NCBI GenBank assembly: GCA_963701095.1
Contig: OY969564.1
Span: 64,001-128,000, forward strand
From: an uncultured Methanoregulaceae archaeon
Lineage (GTDB): Archaea; Halobacteriota; Methanomicrobia; Methanomicrobiales; Methanospirillaceae
DNA: 64,000 nt
Direction of reading: 5' to 3'
Of the stretch, positions 45,669-63,077 are shown piece by piece. Within the stretch, counting starts at the first letter, position 1. Each line of letters opens with the position of its first letter. The notes under the pieces are model-generated. The model did no database searches and was not told where the DNA came from. It worked only from the letters and a program-made list of their open reading frames with translations. The translations under genes and the position numbers were made by a program.

Positions 45669-45903
45669 CATGAGTAAAGAGATTGTCATCGCAGAGGCCG
45701 CTAGGGTTATGCTCGCGATTGAAAAGAACGCCAGCATGTCCCTTATCATCGAACCATGCCCGGACCCGGATCGTGAAGGGTGGTGGCAGGTGCGGGAATG
45801 CCCGATATTTCCCATCCCCCAGTATAAATCCAAACCGCACCGGAAAAGCGAGCGAAAAGTCCGGCGGGATATGGGCAGACCGAGACTTCGCCAGACCGTT
45901 TAA
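45669..45903 (+). CDS. Hypothetical protein
   Basis: Short ORF after terL; start position uncertain. Confidence 0.4.
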
Positions 45904-45921
45904 AAAGTGTTCATCCTACGC

Positions 45922-46152
45922 TTACGTATCCTCAAGCAGTAAAAAATACTCTTCACGGGAAATCCCGGCAGATTTCAGATTATTCTTGATAATGAAAACA
46001 GGGACATCATCCCAGTCCGGAATGACCAGTGGTCGTTTCGCACCGGGCTTTGAAAAAACATAATGATCGCCTTCAATTCTCCTGCAGGTATAACCGGCAT
46101 GCTCGAAGACCTTACGTAACTTTCTTGCCGGGATCGGGACAATCTTTGGCAT
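45922..46152 (-). CDS. hicA: HicA family toxin
   Basis: G...R.EGDH motif; LVIP...IKNNLKSAGIS. Confidence 0.85.
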   Translation of the reverse strand: MPKIVPIPARKLRKVFEHAGYTCRRIEGDHYVFSKPGAKRPLVIPDWDDVPVFIIKNNLKSAGISREEYFLLLEDT

Positions 46153-46155
46153 TGA

Positions 46156-46419
46156 TCAGAGACTGACTTCTTCTGCCGCAATGATTTTTGGCGGTACATA
46201 CCGTCCATCGTGATTTACGGTATAGTTGACCTCAGAAAGAATCTCGTCGAGCGTTCCCATTTTTTCAGATTCTTCAAGAAACAACCGGATAGCAGTCCTG
46301 AGCATCTCTTTAGCGTTCAGGACGGAATTTCCGCAGCTCGAAAGATCCAGCTCCGGGCAGTACGCAACAAACGTATCCCCTTCCTTAAACACGATCATAT
46401 CGAAATTCATTTTGATCAT
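46156..46419 (-). CDS. hicB: HicB family antitoxin (no DNA-binding domain)
   Basis: FVAYCPEL..SSCG....A..ML..AI. Confidence 0.85.
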   Translation of the reverse strand: MIKMNFDMIVFKEGDTFVAYCPELDLSSCGNSVLNAKEMLRTAIRLFLEESEKMGTLDEILSEVNYTVNHDGRYVPPKIIAAEEVSL

Positions 46420-46609
46420 AGTGTCACCGTTCTCATTCAAACCGGGATTGATTGTCCATATCTTGGCCTTTAGTTATGATAATTCCATCCATGGTCCGCA
46501 TGGATACTGCACTAGTTGATGCTATTTTTTTACTCTTCTGATGGGGGGTTATCGGTTTTCGCCAGACCGTTTCAAGTTTATAATTTTTGACGGAATAACG
46601 AAAACCAGC

Positions 46610-46978
46610 ATGCCACAACTCGAACTGGATCCTGGTTTTGTAAAACCGGTGAGTGCATCTGACATTGCAGAACCGGGATACGTACCTGGTTTCACCGTAT
46701 TACCGGCAGCAAGTACCAACCTCCTCAAGAACGGCAATATTACCTGCATCAAACCTAACGGACGCCTTGCATTTTGGTTCACTTCTACCGTTGCAGGAAC
46801 ACTGACGGTCACGTATACCGTCAATGGTGTGATTACCAAGAGTCTCCAGAACGGCGGAGCGTTGTTGGTCGCCGGGGTCGAGTATTCCGGTGTCATCGCA
46901 GTAGACGCGAATGAAACCGTCAATTTCCAGTACTCAGTCACCAGCGGCACCTATCGCCTGGTTGTTCGGGAGATCTGA
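46610..46978 (+). CDS. Beta-rich hypothetical (possible virion) protein
   Basis: Coupled to the portal start. Confidence 0.6.
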   Translation: MPQLELDPGFVKPVSASDIAEPGYVPGFTVLPAASTNLLKNGNITCIKPNGRLAFWFTSTVAGTLTVTYTVNGVITKSLQNGGALLVAGVEYSGVIAVDANETVNFQYSVTSGTYRLVVREI

Positions 46979-48752
46979 TGGTGAAGCGTCCGGCAAATGC
47001 TCCCTTTGATCCTCTGGAGGGTATCGAGCATTTCTCCGGGATCGCCATGGGTGCAGCCTATACCATCCCCGACTTTGGTCCCAACGGCCGGGCATTGAAC
47101 GGCCAGGAATACATCAACAAAGCCCTGGACTCTGATGTGTACGGCGGCCGGAAAATCACCTATTTCAACAAATACGACCGTCTCCAGCAGCTCGAACAAA
47201 TTAATTCAAGACTGGGCATCGGCCTGATCAAGCTCGGCTTCAAACTCCGTGGCCCGGAATTCAAACTGTTCTGCGACCAGGCCGCCGGACTTACCAACGA
47301 ACAGCAGACCTCAATTCTCCAGGACGCGAACAATTTTACGACCAATCTTGATCTCCAGAACCAGTTTGCTGCTGCAGGCCGGCTACTTGCCCGTGACGGC
47401 ACTGTTCCGATCCTTAACAGTGCGGATGCCCGGTTTGGCAATGGGGAGGGTATTACAACCCTTGACTATATGCCGATGAGCCATACCACGATCCTCCCTA
47501 TCGATGCAGAACCTATGACCGCATTCCAGAACGAGGAACAGCTCTGGGAATATGGCACACTCACGGGTGAAGCGTACCAGGTTATTATTAACGAACGCAT
47601 CCAGGCTAAACGCGAAATCCACCTGATCCCGAATGGCCGGGTTACCCTCATGCGGCTGATGCATTTCGGTAACCAGGTCCGTGACATTTACAACCGCAAC
47701 ACGATCGGTCTCTACGGTATCAGCCTTGCCGAGATGATTGATCCCCGCGTCAAGCAACTCGAAGATATGATGTGGGGTTTTTCAAAAGCAATCAACCGGT
47801 ATGGGTATGGCAGGCTCCAGATCGACAACGACCTCCTGAAACAACAGATCGTTGAAGGGACGATGAACCTCAAACAGGCTACGAAGATCATGGCCACGGA
47901 ACAGAAAATCATGAATACCCTGGAGCCCAACCGTGACCTCCTGACCATTGGTAAGACGGTGAAGGCTATCCCGGCGGGTTTGAGAATGCTTCCGGTGTTA
48001 TCGAGATGATCGAGGCCGTCCAGAACGATATCTCGTATGGCCTGTTCGAGACGGAAGCCGGAGGCAACCGGACTCATTCCGGTTCGAACCGGGCGTCGTC
48101 CCAAATATCTGACCAGGATGCCAACCGGGTCCTTGAAGCACTGCGGCTCCAGGTCAAGGTCGGCTTTGAGTCCATCATCAAACGGCACCTTGAACTGCTC
48201 GGATATAACGAGGTTGAAGCCCAGTCTATCCGGATTGAACTGCAGCCCATTGATACGCCTATCGCAGATCTCCAGGTGCTTTTGAATATCGCCGCGATGG
48301 ATCCGAAGGCACTCTCAATGGGACAGGCTATTGAAATGGCCGGCCTGCACATTCCTCCACGGCAGACGGTTGATTTTGAAGAGGATCAAACGATCCAGAG
48401 CGATGATCAGAATCCTCCGGCTGTTGCAATGCCTCCAGGGAAAGGTGCGTCGATGACGATGTTCGGAGCCAAGATCGATGTACGGCCGGGTGAGTCTATC
48501 CAGGCCGCATACAAACGTAAGACAAAACAGGAACTATTCGCAGCGGTCAAAAAGTGGAAAGGAGAAAATAAGAAAATTCCTCTGCCTGCCTCAAAGACCG
48601 GTGAGTGGCGGCTGATCTTCGGCCGGTATATTAACGTGAAGGAGGGCGATGACGAAGCGGCATGCTATCTCACGCAAACCCTCCGGAACTACGACGATGA
48701 TGCCGAAGCTTGGGAGCAGGAATTACGGCGGGTAAAGGAGGGAAAGAAATGA
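46978..48752 (+). CDS. Portal protein (frameshift near 47973)
   Basis: Position between terL and protease; ARDG and YGIS motifs; frames join as AIPGGFENASGVIEMIEAV. Confidence 0.7.
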
Positions 48753-48887
48753 GATTTTCCACAGCATGCATTAGCCATTATCAAATAAGAAAATATATCG
48801 TTATTAGGATGAAATGAGGGGATATGCTTCCTGAAAATCCCAAAGAAATGTTAAAAAGAATCGATGGGGCAGTGAAAAGCGGGAGAA

Positions 48888-51152
48888 TTAGGTTAGTTTT
48901 TTTAGTGCGATTTCCCGATTCTGTTTCGCGATGGCATAATCTGGTTTAATGGCTAGGGCTTTGTCAAAAGATGCAATTGCATCATTAAGTCTACCAAGAC
49001 CACTGAGCGCGACTCCGCGGGTATCCCACACCAAGGCATAATTTGGGTTAAGATTGATTGCGTTGTCACATGAGGTAAGGGCTTCTGTATACCGACCGAG
49101 ATTATTCAGAGCATCCCCTCGGTTGTTCCACGCATCTGGGCTTTTTGGGTAGATTGCAATCGCTTTGTCATAAGAGGCGAGTGCTTCCGAATACCGACCG
49201 AGCATCCCTAGCAAGACTCCACGATTGTACCACACCAGAACATAATTTGGATAGATATCAATTGCCTTGTCATATGAGTCAAGTGCTTCCCTATTTCGGC
49301 CGAGCTTACGTAGTATAATCCCGCGATTGCCCCACGCTTCTGCGATATTAGGGTTGATGGCAATTGCCTTGTCATATGAGTCAAGTGCTTCTGTATGCCG
49401 ACCGAGATTTTTCAGAATATCTCCGCGATTGCCCCACGCTTCTGCGATATTGGGGTTGATGGCAATTGCCTTGTCATATGAGTCAAGTGCTTCTGTATGC
49501 CGACCGAGAATCCCTGACAAGACTCCATGGTTGTAACACGCATCAATGTCTTTGGGGTTTATCGCAAGGATTTTATCATAACATTCTATTGCTTTCTGGA
49601 AGTCCTTCAGATCAGAAAACATTTTTCCCTTGTTTCTCCATACAAGAGCCTCCCTTGGATTTATTTCGAGAGATTTATCATAACATTCTATTCCTTTCTG
49701 AAATTCTCCAAGATTATCTAAAGATTTACCTTTGGCTCCCCATGCTCTATCGTTTCTCGGGTCTATCTCAAGGGCTTTATCAAAACATTTAATTGCTTCC
49801 AGATTTTTCTTCAAAAAGGAAAGAATACCGCCTTTATTAATCCATGAATCAGCCATTCTTGGATCTAACTCAAGCGCTTTATCATAACATTCAAGTGCTT
49901 CATGGACGTTTCCCAGACAACGAAGAGCATATCCTTTATTACTCCAACCAAGAGGATCTTTTGGATTTATTTCAAGAGCTTTGTTGTAGCATTTAATTGC
50001 TTCTGGGTATTTCTTGAGATTATCAAGATTTATGCCCATTTCATACCATATACCGGCCACATTTGGATTTATGTCGAGAGCTTTTTCACAACATTCAATT
50101 GCCTCTTGATATTTTCCTAGATTACTAAATGCGACCGCTTTACTTAGCCAATTAGATCCTGTTAAACTCTGGTCTTCTTCAAAAACAACGTATTTTTCTT
50201 TAAAAAGGATATTATAGAGTGATATTAACTCATTTTTCAAGTCATTAAAATCTGAATATCTATTATCTGGATTTCTCTCAATACATTTCATAATCAATGT
50301 ATCCAGTTGTTCCGGTATCTCAGGATTCAAACTCTTAGGTCGTTCCGGTGTTTTTTCAAAGATCTCATTTAGATCATGGAAGGGTAGTTTTCCTGTTAGC
50401 AACACATAAAGTGTCAATCCAAAAGAATAGATGTCAGATCTCGTTGTCACTGGTCCCTTAAAAGAAAATTTATCTTGAATGTTCCTAGGGAACTGTTCCG
50501 GTGGCATAAATATAGGTGTTCCAATGCCATTTGAGACGTTTATGGAATCCCCCAGCATTTGATCACCCAATACTTTTACCAATCCAAAATCTGTGATTTT
50601 AAAAGAATACCTGGATATAAATCTTGGATCTTGTCGCAGCAATACATTGGTGGGTTTAATATCGCGGTGAATTATCCCATATTTGTGATAGACGTAATCC
50701 ATCCCTGTACAAAATTGAATGGCAAAGTCCATAGCGTTCTTAATATCAATTTTACCAATAAATCGGTCTAGATCTCCTCCGGGGACATATTCTAAAAACA
50801 GTAAAGGTTTACCTTCGACTATTCGAATTGTATTTGCAAAAACAATGTTTGCATGGTGCTCAATTGCAATCCAGACCTCTGCTTCCGCCATGAATCTTTG
50901 GATTGCATTATTATCCCAGAGAAATTTATCCTGAAAAGTTTTAATAGCAATAAGTCCATTCGATTGTAGCTCACGAGCGATATAAACAACACCCATGCCG
51001 CCTTTTTTTATATCAACAATTTCGTAGAGATTCGAAATTTTATAACCTTTCTCCCAAGGTTTCACGGTGGGATGTAAAATATACGTGTTGGGGTTATTGT
51101 TTAAATCAGAGTCATTCTCTGGATTTATTCTAAAATTATAAAGAAATCCCAT
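48888..51152 (-). CDS. Hanks-type Ser/Thr kinase with 12 TPR repeats
   Basis: GGMGVVY, AIK, HRDIKPTN, DFG, PPE, SDIYSFG; 34-aa repeats. Confidence 0.93.
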   Translation of the reverse strand: MGFLYNFRINPENDSDLNNNPNTYILHPTVKPWEKGYKISNLYEIVDIKKGGMGVVYIARELQSNGLIAIKTFQDKFLWDNNAIQRFMAEAEVWIAIEHHANIVFANTIRIVEGKPLLFLEYVPGGDLDRFIGKIDIKNAMDFAIQFCTGMDYVYHKYGIIHRDIKPTNVLLRQDPRFISRYSFKITDFGLVKVLGDQMLGDSINVSNGIGTPIFMPPEQFPRNIQDKFSFKGPVTTRSDIYSFGLTLYVLLTGKLPFHDLNEIFEKTPERPKSLNPEIPEQLDTLIMKCIERNPDNRYSDFNDLKNELISLYNILFKEKYVVFEEDQSLTGSNWLSKAVAFSNLGKYQEAIECCEKALDINPNVAGIWYEMGINLDNLKKYPEAIKCYNKALEINPKDPLGWSNKGYALRCLGNVHEALECYDKALELDPRMADSWINKGGILSFLKKNLEAIKCFDKALEIDPRNDRAWGAKGKSLDNLGEFQKGIECYDKSLEINPREALVWRNKGKMFSDLKDFQKAIECYDKILAINPKDIDACYNHGVLSGILGRHTEALDSYDKAIAINPNIAEAWGNRGDILKNLGRHTEALDSYDKAIAINPNIAEAWGNRGIILRKLGRNREALDSYDKAIDIYPNYVLVWYNRGVLLGMLGRYSEALASYDKAIAIYPKSPDAWNNRGDALNNLGRYTEALTSCDNAINLNPNYALVWDTRGVALSGLGRLNDAIASFDKALAIKPDYAIAKQNREIALKKLT
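49261..49500. repeat. Near-identical 102-bp TPR-coding tandem repeats
   Basis: ATTGCCTTGTCATATGAGTCAAGTGCTTC at 49261, 49363 and 49465. Confidence 0.9.
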
Positions 51153-51338
51153 TATATACTCAAATTTTCATTCTATTTTTTACCTTTATAAGGTTTTTCG
51201 ACTTTTAACATTTTGTACGAAACCTCAACTAATTTTCACCTTAAAAGTGAAGATAAAATGAAAGGTTAGGCAAAATGAATTTATTGTTGTTCACCTGGCT
51301 AAATTTAAAATATTAGTTTAATGGATCCCTTTGCCGTA

Positions 51339-52154
51339 TTAATTTCCAACCATAATAGTTCCATTTTGTTGTTTCACCATCTTTGCCATTTCTGGGTTTA
51401 AACGATATAATTGATTATAAGCATCAAGAAATTCTTTATCGCGGTTTAAATTTTTGAGAGCTGATGCTTTGTTATACCACGCGAAGGTGTCATTTGGATT
51501 TAATTGAATGGCTCTGTCGCATGCAATGAGAGATTCATCATAACGCTTCAGAAAAACAAGGATGCCGCCCCTGTTATGCCATGCAGATGCATCATTTGGA
51601 TTTAATTGAATGGCTCTGTCGCATGCAATGAGAGCTTCTTCCTGACGCTTCAGAAGAAAAAGGACACCGCCTTTCTTCCACCATGAGGTTGCATTATTTG
51701 GAGTGAATTGTAGAGCTTGGTCATGCGCATTCAAAGCTTCTTCAAATTGTTTAAGTACATGACTAAAGATGGCTGCCTTCTCTTGCCACGCAATCAATGC
51801 ATGATCATTATCGGGATTTAATTGAAGGACTCGATTATATGAGTCTAGAGCTTCTTCATGCCGGTTCAAATTATTGAGGATATACCCTCTCATGCACCAT
51901 GAGTCCGTATCATTTGGGTTTAGGTTAAGGGCGTGGTCATATGCCACCAGGCTCCCTTCGTAGCGTTTTAAATCAATAAGCATTCGTCCTTTAAATTTCC
52001 ATAAATCTGATGATTCTGGCTTTAATTGAATCGCCACATCACAAGCAGTAAAGGCATCTAAAAATAATCCCATATTATAGTTTTTAAAGGCAGCATCCAT
52101 CCATTGATTGGCATTTTTTCCCTCAATTGTTTTCTCGGTTGAAGAAAAAACCAT
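51339..52154 (-). CDS. TPR-only protein
   Basis: About seven TPRs; identical 42-bp blocks at 51491 and 51593. Confidence 0.88.
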   Translation of the reverse strand: MVFSSTEKTIEGKNANQWMDAAFKNYNMGLFLDAFTACDVAIQLKPESSDLWKFKGRMLIDLKRYEGSLVAYDHALNLNPNDTDSWCMRGYILNNLNRHEEALDSYNRVLQLNPDNDHALIAWQEKAAIFSHVLKQFEEALNAHDQALQFTPNNATSWWKKGGVLFLLKRQEEALIACDRAIQLNPNDASAWHNRGGILVFLKRYDESLIACDRAIQLNPNDTFAWYNKASALKNLNRDKEFLDAYNQLYRLNPEMAKMVKQQNGTIMVGN

Positions 52155-52463
52155 TATTATCAATCCTATTGTAAATTTGTAACATCTTAATACTTTATTT
52201 AAAAAAACCTAAACAAGGGTGTTCTTTTCTATCCAACATCATCTTATATTCCGTGCAGTACTGCCACTGGATCGCGCTTCAAGGCATTAAGTAAAATCAA
52301 ATCGGGGTACAATTTATCTTATGATTTTTGTCAGAGTTTTTCTGGAAAACAAATTGCCACATGGAATTTTAATTAATATCTATCTTGCGGACTTTGTGTG
52401 GCACATACCTTTTATTATTTAATTCTCAATATACCATATAATTATTAAAAGATGGTGACGTAA

Positions 52464-52889
52464 ATGGGCGTTGTAGTTGAAATTCTAAAGAAAGTAAGAG
52501 ATCCGCTTAATCTCTTATACATGGCAATGCCACGAGTTTCGATGAAACCAATTGGTGGTGGACGTGCAACGTCTACAGAATATGTACCGGATCAACTTGT
52601 ATTTGATGTTCATATATGGAATGACCGAGTGCAACTTTTCAAGGTCGGTGGCGGGATAAATCTCCAGTCATCAAATCTTGCAGTACGAATGATGGTAGAA
52701 CAATTATATCCAATGTATGTCAATATCAGAGAAGTTTGTGATATTGGAGATATAGATGAAATAGAAAAACGTGGGCGGGAATTATCAGATACCGATGATC
52801 CAACCCCATATACAACCGCATTTAACGAGTTTGTAAAATTAAAAGAACGTAGAATCAAAGATTTCGAAGCAGGTGATATACAAGGATAA
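52464..52889 (+). CDS. Hypothetical protein
   Basis: 141-aa ORF with GGTGA RBS, divergent from the TPR gene. Confidence 0.65.
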   Translation: MGVVVEILKKVRDPLNLLYMAMPRVSMKPIGGGRATSTEYVPDQLVFDVHIWNDRVQLFKVGGGINLQSSNLAVRMMVEQLYPMYVNIREVCDIGDIDEIEKRGRELSDTDDPTPYTTAFNEFVKLKERRIKDFEAGDIQG

Positions 52890-53190
52890 CAAACCCAAAT
52901 CCGATAATACCATTTAATTTTGCACTTGCTATCCCCAGTGATGTGATACGGAATTGAATATTTTTTGAGAACCGGGTATTTTCGTTGTGCTATGCGCCAT
53001 AAGCTATGGCGGATATTCTGCCGTCCCTTATGTCCTCGTTCCCATGAGTTTTATATATAGCATAAGATGTACTGACAATTATCCAGTTGACTTTGGACTA
53101 TCTGGCAGCAACATCTTACAATCCGGGCAATCAGTTCCCATACTAAAAGAACAAATAAAGATTAAGTTGATGAAATAGTGGGGAAATAAT

Positions 53191-53240
53191 ATGATAACGC
53201 ACTGTTATAGGTGTGGACACTATACTTTATTGAATTCATG
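53191..53240 (+). pseudogene. 5' fragment of a Zn-finger/TPR gene split by the transposon
   Basis: MITHCYRCGHYTLLNS joins in frame to CPIYPG after 57760. Confidence 0.8.
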
Positions 53241-53372
53241 GGCTTTGCACGTAAACTCGCTTCTGCACGTAAAGTATGAGACTTGCACGTAAAGTGGCGT
53301 ATAGGTAATTTTTAATAAATTTGAACCGATCAATTTGAAAATACTAATAGGAATGAATGGAGAACAACTAGT

Positions 53373-53738
53373 ATGAGCAAAAGGAAAAAGAACGCTATCA
53401 ACGATGATGGAACTGGCGAGTTCCCCTCAAGTGGCGGAGGAATAAGATTGTTTGGGGCGACATCAAGGCATGACTATGAGTTTTTAATAATGGATGGTAT
53501 TAAAAAAGGATTTACTACCACGCCAGAACTTCACAAATTTATAGAGGCTGGATTTAAAGACAAATTTAACGAGATAGATACATCATTTGTTACAATTTAC
53601 TCTACTCGTTGGCAAAAAAACGTTGATTGGAAAAAATATCTTATGAAAAACGATGGTTTAATTGAACAAGATGGGAAACAACTTTCGTTGACTGCTGAGG
53701 GAGTTGCCCGTTATTTACATTTGAGAAAGAATAGATAA
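53373..53738 (+). CDS. Stand-alone Mrr-N-like winged-helix protein
   Basis: RWQKNVDW...MKNDGLIE......LTAEG. Confidence 0.55.
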   Translation: MSKRKKNAINDDGTGEFPSSGGGIRLFGATSRHDYEFLIMDGIKKGFTTTPELHKFIEAGFKDKFNEIDTSFVTIYSTRWQKNVDWKKYLMKNDGLIEQDGKQLSLTAEGVARYLHLRKNR

Positions 53739-53748
53739 TGTAATTTCT

Positions 53749-54705
53749 TTAAAGGCTGCTCAACCAATTGCAGAGAGAGGCGAGTTGATCGGCATCGGTC
53801 ATATTTGCAGCATTTTTCAATGTTTCATTTTGAATCCGTTCCCATATTTCATCTGCCATACGTTGAGATATTGCAGCGGCGATAAAACATATTTCCGGGA
53901 ACGAATCCTCACGAGAAAATTTAGAGCGAATGTCACTCAATGCAGATCGCGTTGTTTTCCAACGTTCATCTGCACCTGCTGGATCGATACCGCCTTTCAA
54001 TTCACCTAATGCAAGAAACAGGGCAGGTGCTTTTTTTGCCCGAGGCAATTCTTCCCGTGAACATTTTATTAAATTAATATCAACATTTTTACCAACTAAC
54101 GGGATTCTAACGTCATAAATCAATGTTCTGTTTTGCCCGTTTTTCATCCAATTCAATCCCTTTACAAGAGGAGTAATATTCGCATCGTTGACATTGGTAT
54201 TTGGGGCGCGCGCCCACTTATCTGTATCACGATTGCACCAATAAAACGGAACACCCGCATTCCTTAAAGACGCTATAACTGCACTGGATACACGTTGTCG
54301 TGCCCAATATCCGACGATGTTGTTCATTGAACCCGCCAAGCTTCCGCCACTAATTAACAAAAAGCGAAATACCAACTCTTCAACAAAATTATTACCGGCC
54401 GGTTCAAGATATTCTCTGATCAATCCTTCGATAGCGGCTGTTTTTGCTTCTTCGGGAATGTTTCCCATGCTTTTATCAGATATTCCAGAAGCGGTGATCA
54501 ATGCGCTCCGTATCCCTCCAATCCCAATCAATTCTTGAGCAGTTCGGACTGTTGATGCTGTAGATTTCAACTGTCGTGCCTCTTCTATATATGGAGAGGC
54601 AATACGACTTTTTTCAAGCGCTTGAGCTACAAACGCAGCCCTGATTTCTTCACGGGTGGTTATAAGACTGGCCGCATTCGGCAAATGAGGTAGATTTGGT
54701 GGCAT
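53749..54705 (-). CDS. Type II restriction endonuclease, AvaI/BsoBI family
   Basis: KNVD and GELKGGIDPAGADE.WKT motifs. Confidence 0.88.
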   Translation of the reverse strand: MPPNLPHLPNAASLITTREEIRAAFVAQALEKSRIASPYIEEARQLKSTASTVRTAQELIGIGGIRSALITASGISDKSMGNIPEEAKTAAIEGLIREYLEPAGNNFVEELVFRFLLISGGSLAGSMNNIVGYWARQRVSSAVIASLRNAGVPFYWCNRDTDKWARAPNTNVNDANITPLVKGLNWMKNGQNRTLIYDVRIPLVGKNVDINLIKCSREELPRAKKAPALFLALGELKGGIDPAGADERWKTTRSALSDIRSKFSREDSFPEICFIAAAISQRMADEIWERIQNETLKNAANMTDADQLASLCNWLSSL

Positions 54706-54746
54706 GATTAAATCTTATTTATGCCACAGTAAAATAAAAAATCATC

Positions 54747-56156
54747 TTATACTTTTTTCCAGCAATAGACACATTTTCTCAATGATGTTCGTCCGTGGGT
54801 TCCCATTTGCTGACTACTATTCCCTTTCCCCGTAGGAAGAACCAATATTTTTTCCACTTTAAACCCAAGATTCTCTGCAATACTCGACAAGATGGTATCA
54901 ACGGAAATATTGACCCCGGCATATCTCACATTGTCGTTTACCATGAACATGTATCCATCAGGTTTTAAAACACGGTGGCACTCTTTGATCACACATGCCA
55001 TCTCATAGAAATATCCACGAACCATACGAGGAATACCGGTGTTATTTAATTTATCCTGCTTTTTCAAATCTTCCAAATATCTCAATATCTCTTGCAAAAC
55101 CTCTTGGTCGTCGGTTATTTTTATGGCGTCTTTCCAGTCAGAATTCATTAAAATGAGATCCTTTGCACGATTCTCAACCGTGCAACTAATCATTTTCTGT
55201 CTCAAATCCCGCAATTTGTATTCATCGGTTCCAAGTAACGCCAGTTCTAGCGCGTATGTTCTCGTATAATCATACCGATTACAGTACGGCGGAGAGGTGA
55301 TAATAGTCTTATATGTGTCATCTTTTAACGTTTGCAAAATTTCAAGACACGATCCCTCATGAAGTATGATATCTCCATTCAGTATTGGCGATGATAGTTC
55401 TATACTAGGTGCAGTGTCAGTAATTATTTCGTTGAGTTTTTCGGTGATGGCACCACCGAATTCCAATATCGTTCCTTTATCAAACACGTTAGAATTTAGT
55501 TGCCCTCTGCCTGATCTTTGATCCCATCGAAGATATTGCCCATCTTTCCGAGTGTAACTGATTGATTCCAGAATACAAAGAAGTGCAAATTTTAAAACAA
55601 ACTGCACTCTTTTATTTTCTTTTGATAGCACATGCAGATAATTTTCTATCGCCAATTGTGTTTCTGGGGGGTACGCATTGTTTGTTATTTTTAATGCAAT
55701 GAATGGAGTTCTTTCCTGTGTTTTTATCCACGGCTTATTTTTTATCCACCGAAGAATTGTTTCACGATCTTTTTTCGTGAACTTTTGTTCCAAGCAGATT
55801 TTAGTCGTTATTATCTGATGTCCAATAGGAAGGAGTTCGATCCCATCCGCATCTAACCCCAATGCACTTGCGGTAAATAATGCAGTCCCACTCCCAGCAA
55901 ACGGATCTAACAATCTCCCCGACCGGATTCTATATTTCTTAAGGAGGTATTCTACGAGAGAGGCCGAAAACGCTTCCTTAAATTTATACCATCTGTAAAC
56001 AGGGCGCTTTTTATTATCTTGGAAACTTACGATCTGACGAGTTAGTTTTTTATCAATTATGATATTGTGTTGAAAATGATTTTCCAATAAGTGATCCATG
56101 TCGTCAATACGAGATATTGATTCTTTTTCTGAAAGAATTCCCATAAGTTCTACCAT
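54747..56156 (-). CDS. DNA methyltransferase (probably m4C), cognate of the REase
   Basis: DPFAGSGT precedes TSPPY; adjacent to the REase. Confidence 0.9.
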   Translation of the reverse strand: MVELMGILSEKESISRIDDMDHLLENHFQHNIIIDKKLTRQIVSFQDNKKRPVYRWYKFKEAFSASLVEYLLKKYRIRSGRLLDPFAGSGTALFTASALGLDADGIELLPIGHQIITTKICLEQKFTKKDRETILRWIKNKPWIKTQERTPFIALKITNNAYPPETQLAIENYLHVLSKENKRVQFVLKFALLCILESISYTRKDGQYLRWDQRSGRGQLNSNVFDKGTILEFGGAITEKLNEIITDTAPSIELSSPILNGDIILHEGSCLEILQTLKDDTYKTIITSPPYCNRYDYTRTYALELALLGTDEYKLRDLRQKMISCTVENRAKDLILMNSDWKDAIKITDDQEVLQEILRYLEDLKKQDKLNNTGIPRMVRGYFYEMACVIKECHRVLKPDGYMFMVNDNVRYAGVNISVDTILSSIAENLGFKVEKILVLPTGKGNSSQQMGTHGRTSLRKCVYCWKKV

Positions 56157-56184
56157 GATTACAACGGCTCTATTAATACGCCTT

Positions 56185-56346
56185 TCATTTTCTTATTCGT
56201 TCCCGATCCCAATACGGGGACTTACATTTCGGATTCGGGCATACCTTCGGGAGTTTGTCCGGGTCTTTGGGATACCATTCGTGCCCACATCTAAGGCACG
56301 TCAATTTCTGATTAATCTCTTTACCGCAATGAGGACATCTCGCCAT
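56185..56346 (-). CDS. 53-aa zinc-finger microprotein
   Basis: MARCPHCGKEINQKLTCLRCGHEWYPKDPDKLPKVCPNPKCKSPYWDRERIRK; GAGGTG RBS; missed by the ORF track. Confidence 0.8.
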   Translation of the reverse strand: MARCPHCGKEINQKLTCLRCGHEWYPKDPDKLPKVCPNPKCKSPYWDRERIRK

Positions 56347-56387
56347 AAAGTAACACCTCTACTGATTGATATAACTTAATCATCCAA

Positions 56388-56451
56388 AGTATATATTCCT
56401 GCCGGTATGTATCCCCTTCGGTATGTATACCGTTAGGTATATATCCCTTAA
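56388..56451. repeat. Four 16-bp-period operator-like repeats
   Basis: Units start AGTATATATTCC, GGTATGTATCCC, GGTATGTATACC, GGTATATATCCC at 56388, 56404, 56420, 56436. Confidence 0.75.
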
Positions 56452-56475
56452 GGGACATAGTATAGGTAGTGAATT

Positions 56476-57717
56476 GTGATGACACAAACCCACGAACCCC
56501 TAACCACCAGCCGCGAAAAGAGGGGGCGAGCAATCGCAGAAAAGAGCGGTCAGATCCAGAAAGTCAAAGATAACCAGTACAAGGTAAGGTCACAGTCCGG
56601 CAACGGTTCCTATGAAATCAAAATCGGCAAGAATGGGGCCGAATGCAGTTGCCCGGATTTCCAGACCCGGCACCTGCCCTGCAAGCATATTCTCGGACTT
56701 CGCTATTACCTAGAAGTGCAGAAGGACACCCCCGAAGGCACTGTAACCGAAAAGGTACGTCTGACTTATTCCCAAGCGTGGAGCGCGTACAATGCTGCAC
56801 AGATCGAAGAAATCAAAATCTTCGATGCTCTGTTGAAGGATTTAGTAAAAGCAATCCCTGAGCCGGAACAGAAGATGGGGCGCCCACGCATACCGATGAG
56901 TGAAAACCTGTTCTGTGCTATTCAGAAGGTTTACTCTCAGTTATCCAGCCGTCGCGCTCACAGCCTCTTCCAGAATGCGGTAGAAAAGAAGCAGATCGAT
57001 CACGCGCCTTACTTCAATGCACCATCGGCCCTGTTCAACAAGCCCGAAATAACACCTATCCTTCAGGAGTTAGTCACGCTATCAGCGTTACCCGTTGCTG
57101 AGCTTGAAACAGACTTTGCGATTGACTCCACGGGATTCCGGACTACAACCTTTAGCGAATACTGTGGAATGAAACACGGGCAGAAGAAGGCTCACCGATG
57201 GATCAAGGCACACATGGCAACCGGCATTAAGACCAACATCGTTACCTGCATCGAAGTCACCGCTGGGAACGCCCACGATTCCACGCAATTCAAGCCCCTC
57301 GTTAAAGACATCTCAATGAATTTTAATATCCATGAAATTTCCGCCGACAAAGCTTACTCATCCCGTGACAATTACGAGGCCGTGAACGCAGTCGGTGGAA
57401 CTGCGTATATTCCGTTCAAGAGCCACGCAACTGGTAAGACTCGTGGTTCCCCCATCTGGAAAAAGATGTACCACTATTTCCAACTGAACAAGGATGAGTT
57501 CATGGAGCACTATCACAAGCGAAGTAACACTGAGTCAACCAACGCGGCCATCAAAAGGAAATTTGGGGAGACACTGAAATCGAAAAACCAGACCGCTCAG
57601 ATCAATGAACTTCTAGCAAAGATTATCGCCTACAATCTGACGGTAGTAATTCATGAGATGTATGAGAATGGGATCTCGCCAGACTTCCTGCACGTAAAGT
57701 CCGGAGCCTGCACGTAA
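56476..57717 (+). CDS. DDE transposase (IS5/IS903-like) with N-terminal SWIM zinc finger
   Basis: CSCPDF...CKH; AIDSTG, ADKAY, YHKRSNTES...K. Confidence 0.9.
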   Translation: MMTQTHEPLTTSREKRGRAIAEKSGQIQKVKDNQYKVRSQSGNGSYEIKIGKNGAECSCPDFQTRHLPCKHILGLRYYLEVQKDTPEGTVTEKVRLTYSQAWSAYNAAQIEEIKIFDALLKDLVKAIPEPEQKMGRPRIPMSENLFCAIQKVYSQLSSRRAHSLFQNAVEKKQIDHAPYFNAPSALFNKPEITPILQELVTLSALPVAELETDFAIDSTGFRTTTFSEYCGMKHGQKKAHRWIKAHMATGIKTNIVTCIEVTAGNAHDSTQFKPLVKDISMNFNIHEISADKAYSSRDNYEAVNAVGGTAYIPFKSHATGKTRGSPIWKKMYHYFQLNKDEFMEHYHKRSNTESTNAAIKRKFGETLKSKNQTAQINELLAKIIAYNLTVVIHEMYENGISPDFLHVKSGACT

Positions 57718-58550
57718 TGTCGGGTCAAATCCCTACTTTACGTGCAAAGCCGAATTCATGCCCCATTTATCCAGGTCTGACAAAAGGCTCTTTTGAAATT
57801 ACGGGTGAAAAACAATTATGTAAATCTTGCATGAGTAAAATTTTTGATGATATCCATGCGAAAGAGGTAGCAGATATTTCAATTTGTATGAAAGAGAAAA
57901 GGTTTGATGATGCTATTAAAATTTTTCAATCTATTTTCAATAACGAATCTGATAAAAACTGGTATAATCTTGGGAATTTGTACTACAATAAATTACAACT
58001 TTCTGACGCATTAGATTGTTATGATAATGCATTGTTCTTGAATACACATTACATAAAAGCATGGTATAGGAAGGGGACAATATTGTATAGCATATCAAAA
58101 CTTCAAGATGTTGAAAAACTCAAAGATTCTGCACAATGCTTTAAGAATATTCTCCTTTTAGATCCGAAAAATAAATATGGGTGGAACAATGCATCTACAT
58201 TTTTTATTGCATTATGCAGCATTTCTATTCATAATCGTTTTTTTCAAGACGGTAGCGATACAACACAAACAAACCAAGAAGTTCAAAAATGGGTTTCATT
58301 AAATCTAAATAATAAATATCCCAAAGATCTCGCAAGCGATCTTAAAAATCACCTTACTGGAAAGGCGGGTCGAGAACTTCTTAATGGACTTATTGATTGG
58401 TGGTTTTTAAATCATAAAAAAATATTGGATGCTCTTGAACCAAAAATTGGAGATATTAATCTTTATCCTGATGAAAGTAATGCCATAGAAAGAGTTTACG
58501 TTACGGCCGAAAACGCGAAGATTCCTGATAATTTCTCTAAAAAAATCTGA
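57717..58550 (+). CDS. TPR protein, 3' part of the interrupted gene with a transposon-supplied start
   Basis: WYNLGN...ALDCYDNAL TPRs; first 12 codons derive from the transposon end. Confidence 0.75.
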   Translation: MSGQIPTLRAKPNSCPIYPGLTKGSFEITGEKQLCKSCMSKIFDDIHAKEVADISICMKEKRFDDAIKIFQSIFNNESDKNWYNLGNLYYNKLQLSDALDCYDNALFLNTHYIKAWYRKGTILYSISKLQDVEKLKDSAQCFKNILLLDPKNKYGWNNASTFFIALCSISIHNRFFQDGSDTTQTNQEVQKWVSLNLNNKYPKDLASDLKNHLTGKAGRELLNGLIDWWFLNHKKILDALEPKIGDINLYPDESNAIERVYVTAENAKIPDNFSKKI

Positions 58551-58553
58551 AAT

Positions 58554-58902
58554 TCAATATTTTAATGAGGGTAATGAGTTTACCAAAGACGGTCAATATG
58601 CAGATGCTGTTGCATCATATGACAAGGTGCTTGCAATCAATCCGATAATTATAGGGCATGGAGCAAACGACGATAGGCTCTGTGTAATCTCGGTCGATAT
58701 TCAGAAGCGGCTGAATCTGATAAAAAATAGTTTATTATTTTTCATTTCTCATGAAGCTGAATTAGGAATGTTACCTGAAGAGATGGAATTTGGTATAACT
58801 ACAGATCCCTGTGTCAGACCTTTTATCATAGCATTTGCCATTAATCCAAATTCTGCAGGAGCGAAACAGAATCTAGAAATTGCGCTCAAAAAGATAACCT
58901 GA
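58554..58902 (+). pseudogene. Degenerate TPR gene
   Basis: GQYADAVASYDKVLAINP, then broken frames, ending AKQNLEIALKKIT. Confidence 0.65.
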
Positions 58903-58994
58903 TTTATACCTCGATGGGCAAGGACAGTTCTGTCAAGTCTTCTGTATAATTTCTTTTTACCTTTATAATTTTTCAATAAAAATCCCGTCTCCAG

Positions 58995-60389
58995 ATGCCG
59001 GAGATACCCCTGCTCGGTTCGCTGCAATCTTACACAGTAGCCGCCGCTGCTGATGGTGCACTCCTCGCACAAGGCCCTCTTTTCACCGCAAACAAGATCA
59101 ACAAAAACGGCTGGGGTATTCCCGAAGATGAAGCAGAGCATTTCGCCGCCTCGTTTACGGGAATGCCAATCCGGTATTGTCCGAAAGGGGTAGATACCGT
59201 TGCCAAAGACGGATCGCCGATTCCTGCCGCTCACTACTGCGACGCCATAAACAGCAGCCGAACGATTGTCGGGAACATTGAAAGCGTCTATCCGGTGGGA
59301 AAAGATGCCGATGATCGGACGATCTACGACATGAAAGCCCGGATTACAGACCCGAAGACCGTCAACGGCATTAAGGATGGCACCATCCCCGCGAGCTGGA
59401 GCCTGTGGGCATACGCCATAAAAGAATCCAACGACGGCATGATGCGGGGATGTCAGGGAAAGAGTGCAAGCATCGTCAGCGATCCGGCATACGCTGAGGC
59501 CCGGTTCCAGTGGCAGGCAATCGCAGCCTCCGCCGCTCCGGACCTTTGGAGCAGGGGTATCTACGAACAAGGAGCCAGAATGGCCGACGACAAACCAGAA
59601 AACCAGACAACGCTACCCGGGGTTACCCCAGTGGCAGCGGCTACCGGCGGTATCACCCAGGTATTCAACCTGGGCGCTGCTGCATCCGGTGATGGAACGA
59701 CCGATGGAAAAGAAAGTGCCGATGACCCCAAACCCGCCGAGAACAACGCAGTCTGTGCGAAATGCAAAGAACCCCTCCCGGCCTCTGCCAAGTTCTGCCC
59801 GGCGTGTGGCACATCGCTCCATGCTTCCTGCTCGAACTGTTCATCAACCATACCCCCGGGTGCGAAGTTCTGCCCGGCGTGTGGAAACCCGGCAGCTGCT
59901 CCTGATGGCAATATGAACACCACAGTTGGTGACAACTCCGTTGCTGCCTCACTGGTTGATAAGCTCGTTGAACAGAAACTCGCCGCCCGGCTCGACCAGG
60001 AAAAACGCCAGTCCCTTGCAGCCTCAATTGCACAGGTACAGGTCAAGACCGGCGTCCTCCAGCCGGCAGACACCGAGAAACGCATCGTTGAACTCATTGC
60101 ACTCCCGGCAGCAACCCTCGAAACCGAACTCAACAACTACTGCATGATCGCTGACAAACTCGGCAAACCGGTAGAGCAGGGTATGCGAAGCGGCCAGATC
60201 CCCGCTGCAGCAGCGTCAACCAATAATGGACTGCCGAAGATCCCCATGCCGGCCAATTACCGGGCAATCCTGAAACAGGCGCTCGGTATCGATGGCAGAG
60301 GCATGACAGATGCAGATATCCTCAAGTATGGCATTGCGAGGACTCCCGCCGGGGTCTGGCAGGGTTCGTACCATTCCAGCGAGGGATAA
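58995..60389 (+). CDS. Prohead protease/scaffold with double zinc ribbon
   Basis: NKNGW, H, WS and SIVSDPAY protease-like motifs; four CxxC pairs; upstream of the capsid genes. Confidence 0.75.
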   Translation: MPEIPLLGSLQSYTVAAAADGALLAQGPLFTANKINKNGWGIPEDEAEHFAASFTGMPIRYCPKGVDTVAKDGSPIPAAHYCDAINSSRTIVGNIESVYPVGKDADDRTIYDMKARITDPKTVNGIKDGTIPASWSLWAYAIKESNDGMMRGCQGKSASIVSDPAYAEARFQWQAIAASAAPDLWSRGIYEQGARMADDKPENQTTLPGVTPVAAATGGITQVFNLGAAASGDGTTDGKESADDPKPAENNAVCAKCKEPLPASAKFCPACGTSLHASCSNCSSTIPPGAKFCPACGNPAAAPDGNMNTTVGDNSVAASLVDKLVEQKLAARLDQEKRQSLAASIAQVQVKTGVLQPADTEKRIVELIALPAATLETELNNYCMIADKLGKPVEQGMRSGQIPAAAASTNNGLPKIPMPANYRAILKQALGIDGRGMTDADILKYGIARTPAGVWQGSYHSSEG

Positions 60390-60392
60390 ACC

Positions 60393-61291
60393 ATGACAAA
60401 CCTTACCTATCCTATCGATATTCCTGAACGGCAGGGCAAGACCGTAAACCGTGGTGTTGCTGCCGGCGTCCCGATCTTCAAAGGTGGCCTCCTTGAACTC
60501 AACGTTCGCGGGTACGTCCAGCCGTTCTGCCCGACCGACAACCTGCCCTTCGCCGGTATTGCCGCAGAAGGTTCGATAGTCCCGATCTCCCCGCTCCAGG
60601 CCACGCTTGTTGGTACAACTGATGGATGGGCAACGGTTGGAGTCCAGATCACCGGCCTGCATAAGTTCTCGTACCCGCAGCCTCAGTCACCAACATCAAT
60701 GCCCTGGTATACACCGCTGGCGACGACAACACGATCTCGCTCGTAGAAAACGGGCAGCCGATTGGTATCGTCCAGGACTACGAGAGCGGTTATCTCTGGG
60801 TCAATATCACCGGATTTGCCTCCAGTCTCCCGCAGCGGCTTGATCCGGTCGGCGTGATCAATGTCCCCTTCAGCCTTGCAACTGGTACCCAGTACACCGG
60901 TATTACCCTTCCTCCCCGTGCCATTGTGATGGATGTGATCGTTGAATTTACGACCCCCCTCACTGGCGCTTCTGTCAGTCTTGGCCTTGCGACAATTGCG
61001 AACGGCAGCCTGAATAACAACTGCCTCGTGAATGGTTCGCTCAGCCCGGCCACCGGTTCACCGGGATTCGTTGATCTCATCTTCGAGTCCACAACGTCTG
61101 CGAACATTACGCTCGGTGCATTTCTGAACCAGGCAACCATCAAGTCCGGGGATGCAACCCCAATCTACGCAGCGACCCAGAAGTACTACGCTTCACCACA
61201 GAACCCGACCCTGACCCAGTTCGCCGCAACGGCGGTAGCAGCAGCAACCCCGATCACGGGTGTCTTCCACGTCCAGTTTATGGTGGTCTAA
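60393..61291 (+). CDS. Capsid decoration/cement-like protein (frameshift near 60677)
   Basis: FAGIA; VYTAGDDNT and IGIV after frame repair; between protease and capsid genes. Confidence 0.6.
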
Positions 61292-61293
61292 CC

Positions 61294-62277: not shown

Positions 62278-62304
62278 TCTCACCTCTCATTTTTCAGGAT
62301 TCCA

Positions 62305-63074: not shown

Positions 63075-63077
63075 GCC

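Follow-up and report, generated by a model that had tools for sequence, protein, structure and literature searches.

A kinase-TPR block in the head module of a Methanoregula provirus is probably the present content of a variable cargo slot

An AT-rich block of DNA separates the portal gene from the head gene that follows it in a temperate tailed virus, integrated as a provirus in a Methanoregula genome. This block, identified in the 64,000-nucleotide stretch analysed here (the window), probably fills a cargo (moron) slot at present, as a mosaic rather than one system. The mosaic has three layers: a gene for a soluble Hanks-type kinase with 12 TPRs and a stand-alone TPR gene beside it, with the usual ATPase missing; two genes restricted to the lineage of this island together with the remnant 3' end of a second TPR gene; and an IS5-like transposon, inserted later, that bears a complete BsoBI-type restriction-modification (R-M) pair. 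The slot and its anchors are as follows.

46978..48752, + strand: portal gene, left anchor of the slot, read as two ORFs (46978-48009 and 48006-48752)
48753..58952, no strand: variable AT-rich cargo block, 10,200 bp, set by the limits of homology to L014 and the GC profile
58953..60389, + strand: conserved right anchor, comprising a promoter-like motif at 58954-58968 and the gene for a 464-aa head protein that has a double zinc ribbon (Pfam DZR)

The block runs from the portal stop codon to the promoter of the head gene that follows, and the sequence-only reading, which had proposed about 10 kb of AT-rich DNA at this place, was right almost to the base. In the comparison with the sister virus L014, homology ends at the portal stop codon and restarts at 58953-58954, with 89-90% DNA identity on both sides of the slot, and homology of the right anchor to L014, L229 and G057 fragments begins at 58953-58968. 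The GC content per kb between 49 and 59 kb is 0.34-0.45 compared with 0.50-0.57 in the flanks, and the island genes individually have values of 0.31-0.43 versus 0.48 for the genome and 0.505 for the provirus core. The cargo of L014 is unrelated (4,455 bp, GC about 0.30-0.37) and contains an HTH-M78/IrrE peptidase, DUF4411, a sub-threshold HEPN match and a membrane protein. In two G057 fragments homology begins at 58953 and 58968, and one of these provirus remnants adjoins a TIR-domain gene (GC 0.24). Other sequences abut 58968 (RNA run X17) and 59323 (RNA runs X15, X16 and X17), and a DNA contig of run X2 joins 47000 to 58955. The evidence on the slot comes from one full sister virus, L014, which was the sole match when the viral collection was queried with the portal, and from the two remnants. 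Since the sister virus has a different, conflict-type cargo at the same boundaries, this shows that the slot is a cargo hotspot with fixed boundaries, where related viral DNA carries different AT-rich genes, and supports the block as foreign accessory DNA within the head module.

Hotspots of antiviral systems have been described in P2-like prophages and P4-like satellites (Rousset et al. 2022, PMC9122126). As outlined there, they share with this slot a fixed position between conserved phage genes and differing accessory genes, several of which are of the conflict or defence type. The slot differs from them, as they are outlined, in belonging to an archaeal tailed virus and lying inside the head module, between the portal and the next head gene; in being known from one sister virus and two remnants; and in having as its main cargo a kinase-TPR gene that is no known defence gene.

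The anchor on the left is called a portal from gene order and from a language-model look-alike search (Atlas features), in which the score was 0.96 and all ten best matches were portal families. Its DNA is 89.5% identical to positions 1-2142 of L014, where the counterpart is a single 596-aa ORF. The split into two ORFs comes from one nucleotide that is missing, compared with L014, from a G run near 47973, and the extra G is present in DNA contigs of run X2. This frameshift may be an assembly error, because it lies in a G run of a single-contig genome that is 86% complete. The sequence-only reading had the block splitting portal from protease; the portal is supported by gene order and the look-alike search, but the protease is just a lead, as the Atlas matches of the 464-aa gene are viral and of mixed families, with protease families at 0.94, which makes it a candidate prohead protease or scaffold.

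With the transposon set aside, the gene list proposed earlier, with the strands given, was confirmed:

48888..51152, - strand: soluble Hanks-type Ser/Thr kinase (residues about 40-315) with 12 TPRs, 754 aa (Pfam)
51177..51191, + strand: 15-mer, an exact copy of the conserved start of the right boundary (TATA-like motif; direct repeat D11)
51339..52163, - strand: stand-alone TPR protein, 274 aa (Pfam TPR_1, 120.1 bits)
52464..52889, + strand: orphan 141-aa ORF, no family match
53191..53240, + strand: first 16 codons of the Zn-ribbon-TPR gene (CxxC zinc-ribbon half), cut by the transposon, from the sequence, P0128/P0129 and the empty-site alignment
57752..58550, + strand: remainder of the Zn-ribbon-TPR gene, 100% identical to P0128 from residue 17
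58627..58902, + strand: TPR relic, the degraded 3' end left from a second TPR gene, inverted relative to the 3' end of the kinase-TPR gene

The kinase-TPR protein matches Pkinase with 126.9 bits (cut-off 31.7) and TPR_1 in 12 stretches, and PknB and StkP are its closest relatives of solved structure. Across 30 aligned family members, K71, E90, H162-R-D164 with N169, and D188-F-G190 are invariant or nearly so, and no transmembrane segment was detected, every hydrophobic 19-mer scoring at most 1.01 (Kyte-Doolittle). The kinase looks catalytically competent and soluble, and the earlier description of complete motifs without a membrane segment holds. Adjacent TPR units of the array are 67-81% identical in DNA, which suggests repeat turnover. 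The island contains no phosphatase by Pfam, as had been noted before, and the host has three PP2C-family matches elsewhere.

Stk2 of staphylococci and PD-T4-6 are bacterial anti-phage kinases that phosphorylate many targets upon infection. The kinase described here resembles PD-T4-6 and Mad6 of MADS (PADLOC models), which its Hanks kinase domain matches at E-values between 1e-48 and 1e-50, and is located on a mobile element. However, its PADLOC matches (mad6, 169.6 bits; PD-T4-6, up to 163.9 bits) are, judged by score, generic kinase-domain matches, because they about equal the match to the NCBIfam PknB-type model (170.2 bits). The curated NCBIfam cut-offs were widely missed (MAD6, 102.1 versus 460 bits; PglW of BREX, 49.8 versus 990 bits), and the partner genes of MADS and BREX are all absent. 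The analogy with Avs systems drawn from the TPRs fails as well, since the defining STAND NTPase is absent from the island. Archaeal Hanks-type TPR kinases include ArnC (Saci1193) of Sulfolobus acidocaldarius and SiRe_2030 and SiRe_2056 of S. islandicus (PMC5300886, PMC5682000). Compared by their descriptions there, these are also soluble eukaryotic-like Ser/Thr kinases with TPRs, which are thought to mediate protein-protein contacts in signalling. They are chromosomal and from Thermoproteota, whereas the present gene resides in a provirus, and in ArnC two TPRs are described as preceding the kinase domain, instead of 12 following it.

The kinase is accessory in this lineage. Matches were found in 3 of 401 genomes sampled from the class (E<=1e-40) and in 6 of 401 sampled from the phylum (E<=1e-50), G000 being counted in both; the latter include all four genomes of family f9, with conserved synteny. 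Relatives in two genomes of the same genus and four of another family have signalling or housekeeping neighbours and lack the island partners, and those at 40-47% identity lie in conserved signalling or housekeeping synteny. In the closest cellular relatives, the kinase is directly upstream of an Hsp100/ClpB-like double-AAA ATPase, which occurs in 11 of 23 metagenome contigs with a kinase at least 50% identical and also in G283. This ATPase is missing from the island and the window, and its sole genomic copy is near 0.9 Mb. A kinase is paired with a Clp/Hsp100 unfoldase in McsB-ClpC of Firmicutes too; the likeness concerns the pairing, and the provirus kinase is without the ATPase. At 10 of 22 loci a kinase-TPR gene adjoins a stand-alone TPR gene, some loci have tandem kinase copies, the composition is AT-rich in cells too, and the distribution is patchy. 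These neighbourhoods show two cellular settings for the family, one as a conserved signalling gene and the other within an AT-rich module of kinase-TPR and Hsp100-like ATPase genes.

The kinase-TPR protein, alone or with the adjacent TPR protein, might act as a sensor kinase for superinfection immunity or abortive infection, recognising a protein of an incoming virus and phosphorylating many targets. The intact catalytic site, the AT-rich and patchy occurrence that extends to cells, the tandem copies, the similarity of adjacent TPR units and the recurrent TPR neighbour are in line with this, as is the conflict-type alternative content of the slot (M78 with DUF4411, the sub-threshold HEPN match and TIR), from which a conflict or defence role of the cargo is plausible by location. 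The expected enrichment in defence islands did not appear: in a PADLOC scan of 110 proteins neighbouring kinase relatives, no R-M, CRISPR effector or toxin-antitoxin match was obtained, just AAA or TPR matches of a generic kind and a single Csa3-like HTH. The signalling or housekeeping synteny of the more distant relatives and the MAD6 and PglW scores also speak against it, and no close relative was present in viral contigs, where the best among the matches listed was 33% identical. As an account of the block, this reading is possible, at about one chance in four.

The remaining genes bear on whether all five form a single undescribed antiviral or signalling system, with TPRs sensing a viral protein and the kinase as executor, as the sequence-only reading had it. 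They are contiguous in one AT-rich block within the slot, four of them carry TPRs, and every non-relic gene is covered by RNA-library contigs. The 141-aa ORF, however, has no match in Pfam, PHROG, NCBIfam or PADLOC and no relatives beyond its own 90% cluster among 5.8 billion proteins; a search of 1.84 billion representatives returned its own fragment and one weak match. Among the 63 metagenome loci examined, only L229 has this ORF together with the Zn-ribbon-TPR gene, and L229 is the same island. The remainder of the latter gene has one TPR_1 match (41.1 bits), and a homologue beyond generic TPR repeats was found in L229 alone among these loci. The two genes thus appear, from these searches, to be confined to the island lineage. 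In the relic, the last 30 residues are 57% identical (17/30) to the C-terminus of the kinase-TPR protein, and an inverted repeat of 85 nt (I1, 48886-48970 with 58820-58904, 75% complementary) is accompanied by I2-I4. The stand-alone TPR gene adjoins the kinase as in relatives, with the duplicated promoter motif between them. This 15-mer lies 25-39 nt upstream of the kinase start, has three copies in the 2.63-Mb genome (at 51177, at 58954 and beside a provirus remnant) and parts the kinase gene from the other island genes. Furthermore, this genome has the Zn-ribbon-TPR gene in broken form and shows no sign that its loss is compensated. Because co-occurrence is lacking, the single system is close to refuted and very improbable: kinase relatives never carry the island partners, the 141-aa ORF is an orphan, the ATPase is missing, and of the joint recurrence only the adjacency of kinase-TPR and stand-alone TPR stood. 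We infer that the five genes do not constitute a single dedicated system, in agreement with a mosaic cargo.

The proposed nested transposon was borne out by its inverted ends, target duplication and empty site:

53241..57751, no strand: IS5-like transposon, 4,511 bp, with 15-nt inverted ends and a 9-bp target duplication (53232-53240, 57752-57760)
53373..53738, + strand: 121-aa ORF, no family match
53749..54705, - strand: BsoBI-family type II restriction endonuclease, 318 aa (Pfam Endonuc-BsobI, 369.9 bits)
54747..56156, - strand: cognate DNA methyltransferase, 469 aa (Pfam N6_N4_Mtase, 49.1 bits)
56185..56346, - strand: 53-aa zinc-ribbon-like ORF with two CxxC pairs, no family match
56476..57717, + strand: transposase with an N-terminal SWIM zinc finger and a DDE domain (Pfam)

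The transposon is single-copy in the genome and splits the Zn-ribbon-TPR gene at 53240/53241; the intact form is the 279-aa P0128/P0129, with the same first residues. The site is empty in L229, in P0128/P0129 and in contigs joining 53231 to 57752 (DNA run X2 and RNA run X17). The transposase matches DDE_Tnp_1 (87.6 bits), SWIM (32.3 bits) and NCBIfam transpos_IS5_2 (136.6 versus a cut-off of 140), and G092 contains a related element of 2.8 kb with the same ends, a transposase 91% identical to this one and no R-M genes. A complete BsoBI-type R-M pair was not part of the sequence-only reading. The endonuclease covers positions 4-313 of 313 of the Endonuc-BsobI profile (PADLOC REase_II, 300.7 bits), and the methyltransferase covers positions 32-480 of 481 of MTase_II (PADLOC, 541.1 bits). 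This full-length match with an adjacent methyltransferase resembles BsoBI/AvaI-type type II R-M systems, the difference being that the pair is a passenger of an IS5-like transposon within a provirus. We infer that it is the sole part of the island with a well-grounded defence function.

At least part of the island was found in 20 sequencing runs from 12 studies, and in other samples it is unchanged apart from lacking the transposon. Metatranscriptome contigs from three studies match the kinase-TPR gene (X15, X16, X17), the 141-aa ORF (X15, X17) and the unbroken Zn-ribbon-TPR junction with 0 mismatches, and the stand-alone TPR gene is matched by one RNA-library contig (51649-51866) with two differing letters. 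These contigs, which give neither strand nor level and may include DNA carry-over, are a hint of island expression and no proof of transcription. The block could also be an inert hitch-hiker, a fragment of a cellular kinase-TPR/Hsp100 module acquired through illegitimate recombination and decaying in a defective provirus. The missing ATPase, the relic state of the second TPR gene, the disruption by the transposon, the long terminal branch of the kinase (0.58 versus a median of 0.11) and the portal that reads as frameshifted would fit such decay. This is nevertheless unlikely: the 754-aa reading frame is uninterrupted and keeps every catalytic residue, the transposon-free island recurs across samples, RNA-library contigs cover it, and the portal frameshift may be artefactual.

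As the content of a cargo slot, the island genes would be expressed in lysogens from their own promoters, with the TPR array of the kinase binding a protein ligand and the kinase phosphorylating host or incoming viral proteins. From its location, an antiviral role of the kinase is possible. The benefit to the virus would most likely be the protection of lysogens against other viruses, with the re-tuning of host signalling almost as likely.

The best-supported account of the AT-rich block at 48753-58952 is that a cargo slot of an integrated tailed virus has been filled by a mosaic of genes. The genome is a single contig of 2.63 Mb; ordinary host genes occupy the window upstream of 33 kb, and the provirus spans from 33038 to beyond the window end. 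It includes the following genes:

33038-34108, tyrosine integrase
41957-42595, ParB-like protein
44027-45652, large terminase
61294-62277, Mu gpT-like major capsid protein
63367-63729, head-tail connector protein

The search for att sites gave as its sole match 18 nt at 94% (32836-32853 against a site approximately 20 kb past the window end), and an Rfam search of 33-64 kb returned no match. The sequence-only reading described the block as AT-rich DNA that splits a portal gene from a protease gene. The base composition agrees, with a GC content per kb of 0.34-0.45 at 49-59 kb versus 0.50-0.57 in the viral flanks and 0.48 in the genome. The portal is supported by gene order and by a look-alike search in which all ten top matches were portal families (score 0.96). 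The protease is a lead only, because the look-alike matches of this 464-aa head protein are of mixed families; what it clearly shows is a double zinc ribbon. PDB sequence searches gave no match for the portal and zinc-finger noise only for the 464-aa protein.

Further features of the provirus have been observed. Relative to the sister virus L014, the portal gene lacks 1 nt of a G run (47965-47980) and so reads as two ORFs; the extra G is present in DNA contigs of the sequencing run X2. Since the genome is a single contig yet scored as only 86% complete, this split may be an assembly indel and not the mark of a dead provirus. Between terminase and portal, the stretch 45880-46458 has by a wide margin the top contig depth in the metatranscriptome runs X15, X16 and X17 (32-47 versus 2-10 elsewhere); it holds small ORFs (45683-46063 and 46226-46519) without a family, has no Rfam match, and may be a strongly expressed small viral gene or RNA. 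A second AT-rich patch (GC 0.31) encodes a DUF4238 protein of 403 aa (39142-40353) with no PADLOC or PHROG match, which may be another cargo gene. The gene at 42574-43602 encodes both an ABC-type ATPase segment and a GNAT acetyltransferase domain, and almost all of it is covered by a match to phrog_11143 (unknown function). Finally, a GC scan showed an AT-rich stretch (GC 0.36-0.40) approximately 8-12 kb past the window end (G000:C1, ~136000-140000), within or at the end of the provirus.

The boundaries of the slot are defined by comparison with L014, a viral contig that shows 89-90% identity with the window across 46606-48745 and 58954-64000 and carries 4,455 bp of unrelated DNA (GC ~0.30-0.37) between these stretches. 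The left edge of homology is sharp and coincides with the portal stop codon (48752). On the right, homology restarts at 58953, 41 nt before the ATG of the head gene, and a TATA-like motif is kept. The same flanks and boundaries thus enclose different content, as in prophage cargo hotspots, in one full sister virus; L014 was also the sole match of the portal query of viral contigs. Its cargo consists of:

HTH-M78/IrrE peptidase, 60.3 bits, also RmrA- and spr1629-like
DUF4411 protein, 80.9 bits
RiboL-PSP HEPN match, sub-threshold (22.3 bits versus a cut-off of 28.4)
membrane protein

In G057, a genome of the same genus, homology of two head-gene fragments starts at 58953 and 58968, with AT-rich DNA before both, and one of these AT-rich stretches encodes a TIR-domain protein (53.8 bits) and adjoins host housekeeping genes. 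There (L265:8900-12430, G057:C45), the viral head-gene fragment with its promoter adjoins a 3-kb patch (GC 0.24-0.41) that encodes the TIR protein and directly follows SRP54, Pus10, L21e and KsgA; the locus resembles the remnant of a provirus bearing cargo of defence type. Other sequences abut 58968 (X17) and 59323 (X15, X16 and X17) in RNA-run contigs, and a DNA contig of X2 joins 47000 to 58955. The depth in X2 is 13-45 over the island versus 171-342 over the flanks, a weak hint that most related viruses in this sample are without the island, as summed contig depth is no copy number. Over this small sample of slot copies, defence-type content comprises restriction-modification genes on a transposon in the window, M78, DUF4411 and the sub-threshold HEPN in L014, and TIR in G057.

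The content of the slot in the window is as follows:

48888-51152 (-), kinase-TPR protein, 754 aa
51339-52163 (-), TPR protein, 274 aa
52464-52889 (+), ORF of 141 aa (orf141)
53191-53240, resuming at 57752, Zn-ribbon-TPR gene, interrupted
53241-57751, transposon, 4,511 bp
53749-54705, BsoBI-family endonuclease (Endonuc-BsobI, 369.9 bits, whole profile)
54747-56156, methyltransferase (PADLOC MTase_II, 541.1 bits)
56476-57717, SWIM-DDE transposase
58627-58902 (+), TPR relic

All five genes read from sequence were found where they had been placed, and the proposed reconstruction of the Zn-finger-TPR gene around the transposon is correct: the uninterrupted protein of 279 aa exists in public data (P0128 and P0129), and the metagenome contig L229 contains the same island without the transposon.

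The element itself has 15-nt inverted ends (53241-53255 and 57737-57751) and a 9-bp target duplication (53232-53240 and 57752-57760). Its empty site is found in L229 and in contigs of one DNA and one RNA run that join 53231 to 57752. Together with a DDE transposase (DDE_Tnp_1, 87.6 bits), these features identify an IS5-family element, an assignment that is approximate because the NCBIfam IS5_2 score of 136.6 lies just below the cut-off of 140. Two small ORFs also lie between the left end and the transposase. It is more than a plain insertion sequence, as it carries a type II restriction-modification pair of the BsoBI family, unmentioned in the earlier reading, whose endonuclease and methyltransferase genes lie 41 nt apart on the same strand. 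The transposon is single-copy in its genome. A relative of approximately 2.8 kb in another genome (L271:6773-9597, G092:C4) shares the inverted ends and encodes a transposase 91% identical to that of the window, but where the restriction-modification genes would lie it has approximately 1.2 kb of other DNA. The pair is therefore a passenger of the transposon, and the element family seems to carry exchangeable passengers. The BsoBI site, which we take to be CYCGRG, showed no depletion relative to base composition (observed/expected: genome 2714/2188, provirus core 15/21, island 1/1.6, transposon 1/2.2), and nothing can be inferred from these counts.

The kinase-TPR protein contains a Pkinase domain at residues 50-300 (126.9 bits versus a cut-off of 31.7), as expected of a Hanks-type Ser/Thr kinase, and twelve TPR_1 matches. 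As predicted from sequence, all catalytic motifs are present in the window protein (G51-G54, K71, E90, H162/R163/D164/K166/N169, D188-F-G190 and P218-E219), and no hydrophobic stretch would fit a TM helix. The catalytic residues are invariant or at least 90% conserved in an alignment of 30 family members (the window protein and 29 relatives), and the closest solved relatives are PknB and StkP (E 9e-28). In a tree of 32 kinase domains, the window copy falls in an unresolved cluster with Hsp100-linked kinases, on an end branch of 0.58 versus a median of 0.11. Within the TPR array, the DNA identity of neighbouring 102-nt units at 49041-49550 is 67-81%, and the protein sequences of two successive repeats hardly differ, which suggests a recent unit duplication. 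The island holds no phosphatase, as noted before; this is no obstacle to reversible signalling, because the host has three PP2C-family matches elsewhere.

The remaining genes indicate a composite block. Its ends are imperfect inverted repeats of TPR-coding DNA (48886-48970 versus 58820-58904, 75% over 85 nt), with two further TPR-unit matches between them, so the TPR relic is what decay has left of the 3' end of a second TPR gene, which faces outward. The 15-mer at the right boundary has three copies genome-wide: at 58954, at 51177 (25-39 nt upstream of the kinase start) and beside a provirus remnant near 807 kb. TATA-like motifs are located at 51185-51191 (-) and 58962-58968 (+). Judging from these repeats, the kinase gene and the remaining island genes may have entered in separate steps, and the kinase gene may have a virus-type promoter. 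For orf141, no relative was found beyond its own 90% cluster of four members; a full HMMER search of 1.84 billion representatives gave its own fragment and one weak match (E 8e-6) to a 940-aa protein without a Pfam family, and a search of viral contigs gave nothing. Single-sequence structure predictions were unusable for both orf141 (mean pLDDT 38.0) and the Zn-ribbon-TPR protein P0128 (mean pLDDT 35.5).

The kinase domain has thousands of relatives, among which the members of one distinct family (45-64% identity) all have TPR arrays. Three of 401 genomes sampled from the class match the kinase at E<=1e-40, the window's own genome included; the other two both belong to the same genus (2 of its 104 genomes). 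At E<=1e-50, matches occur in 6 of 401 genomes sampled from the phylum, again including the window's own. In G283, of the same genus, an AT-rich patch contains the kinase gene (64% identity), which has a 767-aa Hsp100/ClpB-like ATPase immediately downstream and also neighbours an IS5-type transposase; the copy in G005, also of the same genus, has 40% identity, host GC content and an adjoining PAS/receiver histidine kinase. All four sampled genomes of family f9 match the kinase (42-45% identity), and gene order and sizes around it are alike in three of the four loci. A PrmA-like methyltransferase adjoins it in both annotated f9 loci (L200 and L201), the former also holding MarR, geranylgeranyl reductase and Alba genes. 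Among the matches listed, the family-alignment search of genome contigs was swamped by generic bacterial kinases (24-35% identity) and that of viral contigs gave only kinases at 33% identity or less; the single-protein search of viral contigs found its own record only.

A family-specific motif scan of metagenome contigs yielded 67 stretches. A kinase at least 50% identical was present on 23 contigs, the island itself excluded, 11 of which also carry an Hsp100-like gene. This gene is next downstream of the kinase in L205, L211, L221, L223, L227, L249 and L255, and divergent in L250. A recurring AT-rich module was observed in Methanoregula-type DNA, in which one or two kinase-TPR genes are followed by a 767-770-aa Hsp100/ClpB-like double-AAA ATPase. 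Copies (L034:7037-11553 from G283, L223:2789-7358, L205, L211, L221, L227, L249, L250 and L255) lie among host genes of higher GC content and may serve either proteostasis or conflict. In L207, L222, L239, L242 and L261, a 325-348-aa gene follows the kinase and precedes a small TPR gene; it has TPRs in both annotated copies (L207 and L222), L222 also giving a weak PsbP_2 match. In 10 of 22 loci the kinase has a stand-alone TPR gene as its neighbour; among these are the genes that separate tandem kinases in L211, L227 and L249. On the 20-kb metagenome contig L253, seven kinase genes lie on one strand, with four domains 40-56% identical and three distant ones at 24-26%; the contig also encodes two proteins with FHA domains, one of which includes a fused SPFH/Band 7 domain.

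The sequence-only reading had joined the five island genes into one candidate undescribed antiviral or signalling system. The partners do not recur with the kinase outside L229, so this reading fails the test of co-occurrence elsewhere. Neither orf141 nor the Zn-ribbon-TPR gene, beyond generic TPR repeats, was found in any metagenome locus of the motif scan other than L229, and restriction-modification genes and the transposase were found in no kinase-bearing locus of the motif scan. The Hsp100-like partner is missing from the island, the genome's only copy being near 0.9 Mb. Of the kinase partners that recur, the window contains just one, a separate TPR protein. PADLOC on 110 neighbour proteins gave only generic AAA matches (DolB, PDC-M37B and TRIP13) on the Hsp100-like ATPase, and otherwise TPR, one Csa3-like HTH, one weak pVip and one small mad3.

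The protein was also compared with known defence kinases. An analogy with Avs systems had been drawn; no STAND (NACHT/NB-ARC-like) NTPase is present among the 25 best of 42 Pfam matches, and the kinase domain runs straight into the TPR array with no domain between, so the protein is not Avs-like. Scores fall far short of the curated cut-offs for MADS Mad6 (antiphage_MADS6, 102.1 bits versus 460) and BREX PglW (BREX_PglW, 49.8 bits versus 990), and the island has no mad or pgl partner genes. For PD-T4-6 or Stk2-like single-gene defence, the kinase domain scores up to 163.9 bits against PADLOC models of PD-T4-6; this value and the 169.6 bits for PADLOC mad6 about equal that of the generic PknB-type NCBIfam model (170.2). 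In the accessible text of two reports, TPR-bearing Hanks kinases appear as cellular regulators in Sulfolobus, namely ArnC, SiRe_2030 and SiRe_2056 (PMC5300886, PMC5682000).

At least part of the island is present in 20 runs from 12 studies of wetland, peat, soil and freshwater metagenomes, and run shares near 0.5 fit its transposon-free form. Four of the 20 listed runs were examined, one DNA (X2) and three RNA runs. Contigs with 0 mismatches from the three metatranscriptome runs, each of a different study, cover the kinase-TPR gene in 4, 3 and 1 pieces, orf141 in 2 and the intact Zn-ribbon-TPR junction in 1; such contigs give neither strand nor level and are no proof of transcription. One more kinase-TPR piece (X16) and one TPR-gene piece differ by 2 letters each.

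Within the mosaic, the kinase-TPR protein would derive from a cellular family by capture; its gene has stayed intact and is probably expressed. The neighbourhoods of its cellular relatives point to a function in signalling or proteostasis. An antiviral role is plausible because of the location among conflict-type cargo, and we rate it as unlikely on balance. A broader proposal, to which we give rather little credence, is that the kinase and its TPR partner would form a sensor kinase making the lysogen immune to other archaeal viruses. If so, Archaea would gain a first kinase-based antiviral mechanism and archaeal tailed viruses a first described defence hotspot, in the slot between portal and head gene, and the related AT-rich kinase-TPR/Hsp100 modules of Methanoregula-type genomes would represent a cellular version of the same undescribed system.

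The literature search found no paper on kinases in archaeal proviruses, and the word 'kinase' is absent from the accessible main text of a 2026 archaeal provirus survey. As far as the literature was searched, this is the first Hanks kinase-TPR protein noted in an archaeal provirus; the nearest published concept, from the accessible text, is that of prophage hotspots (Rousset et al. 2022, PMC9122126). Little is known about the cargo of temperate methanogen viruses beyond replication and structural genes, and this locus is a clean cargo slot in a methanogen virus with three acquisition layers, one of which is a transposon that brings a restriction system to a provirus. Should host or viral proteins be targets of the kinase, Ser/Thr phosphorylation would be tied to virus-host conflict in Archaea; otherwise, the locus still serves as a useful marker with which to follow genes moving between the chromosomes of wetland methanogens and the viruses of these hosts.
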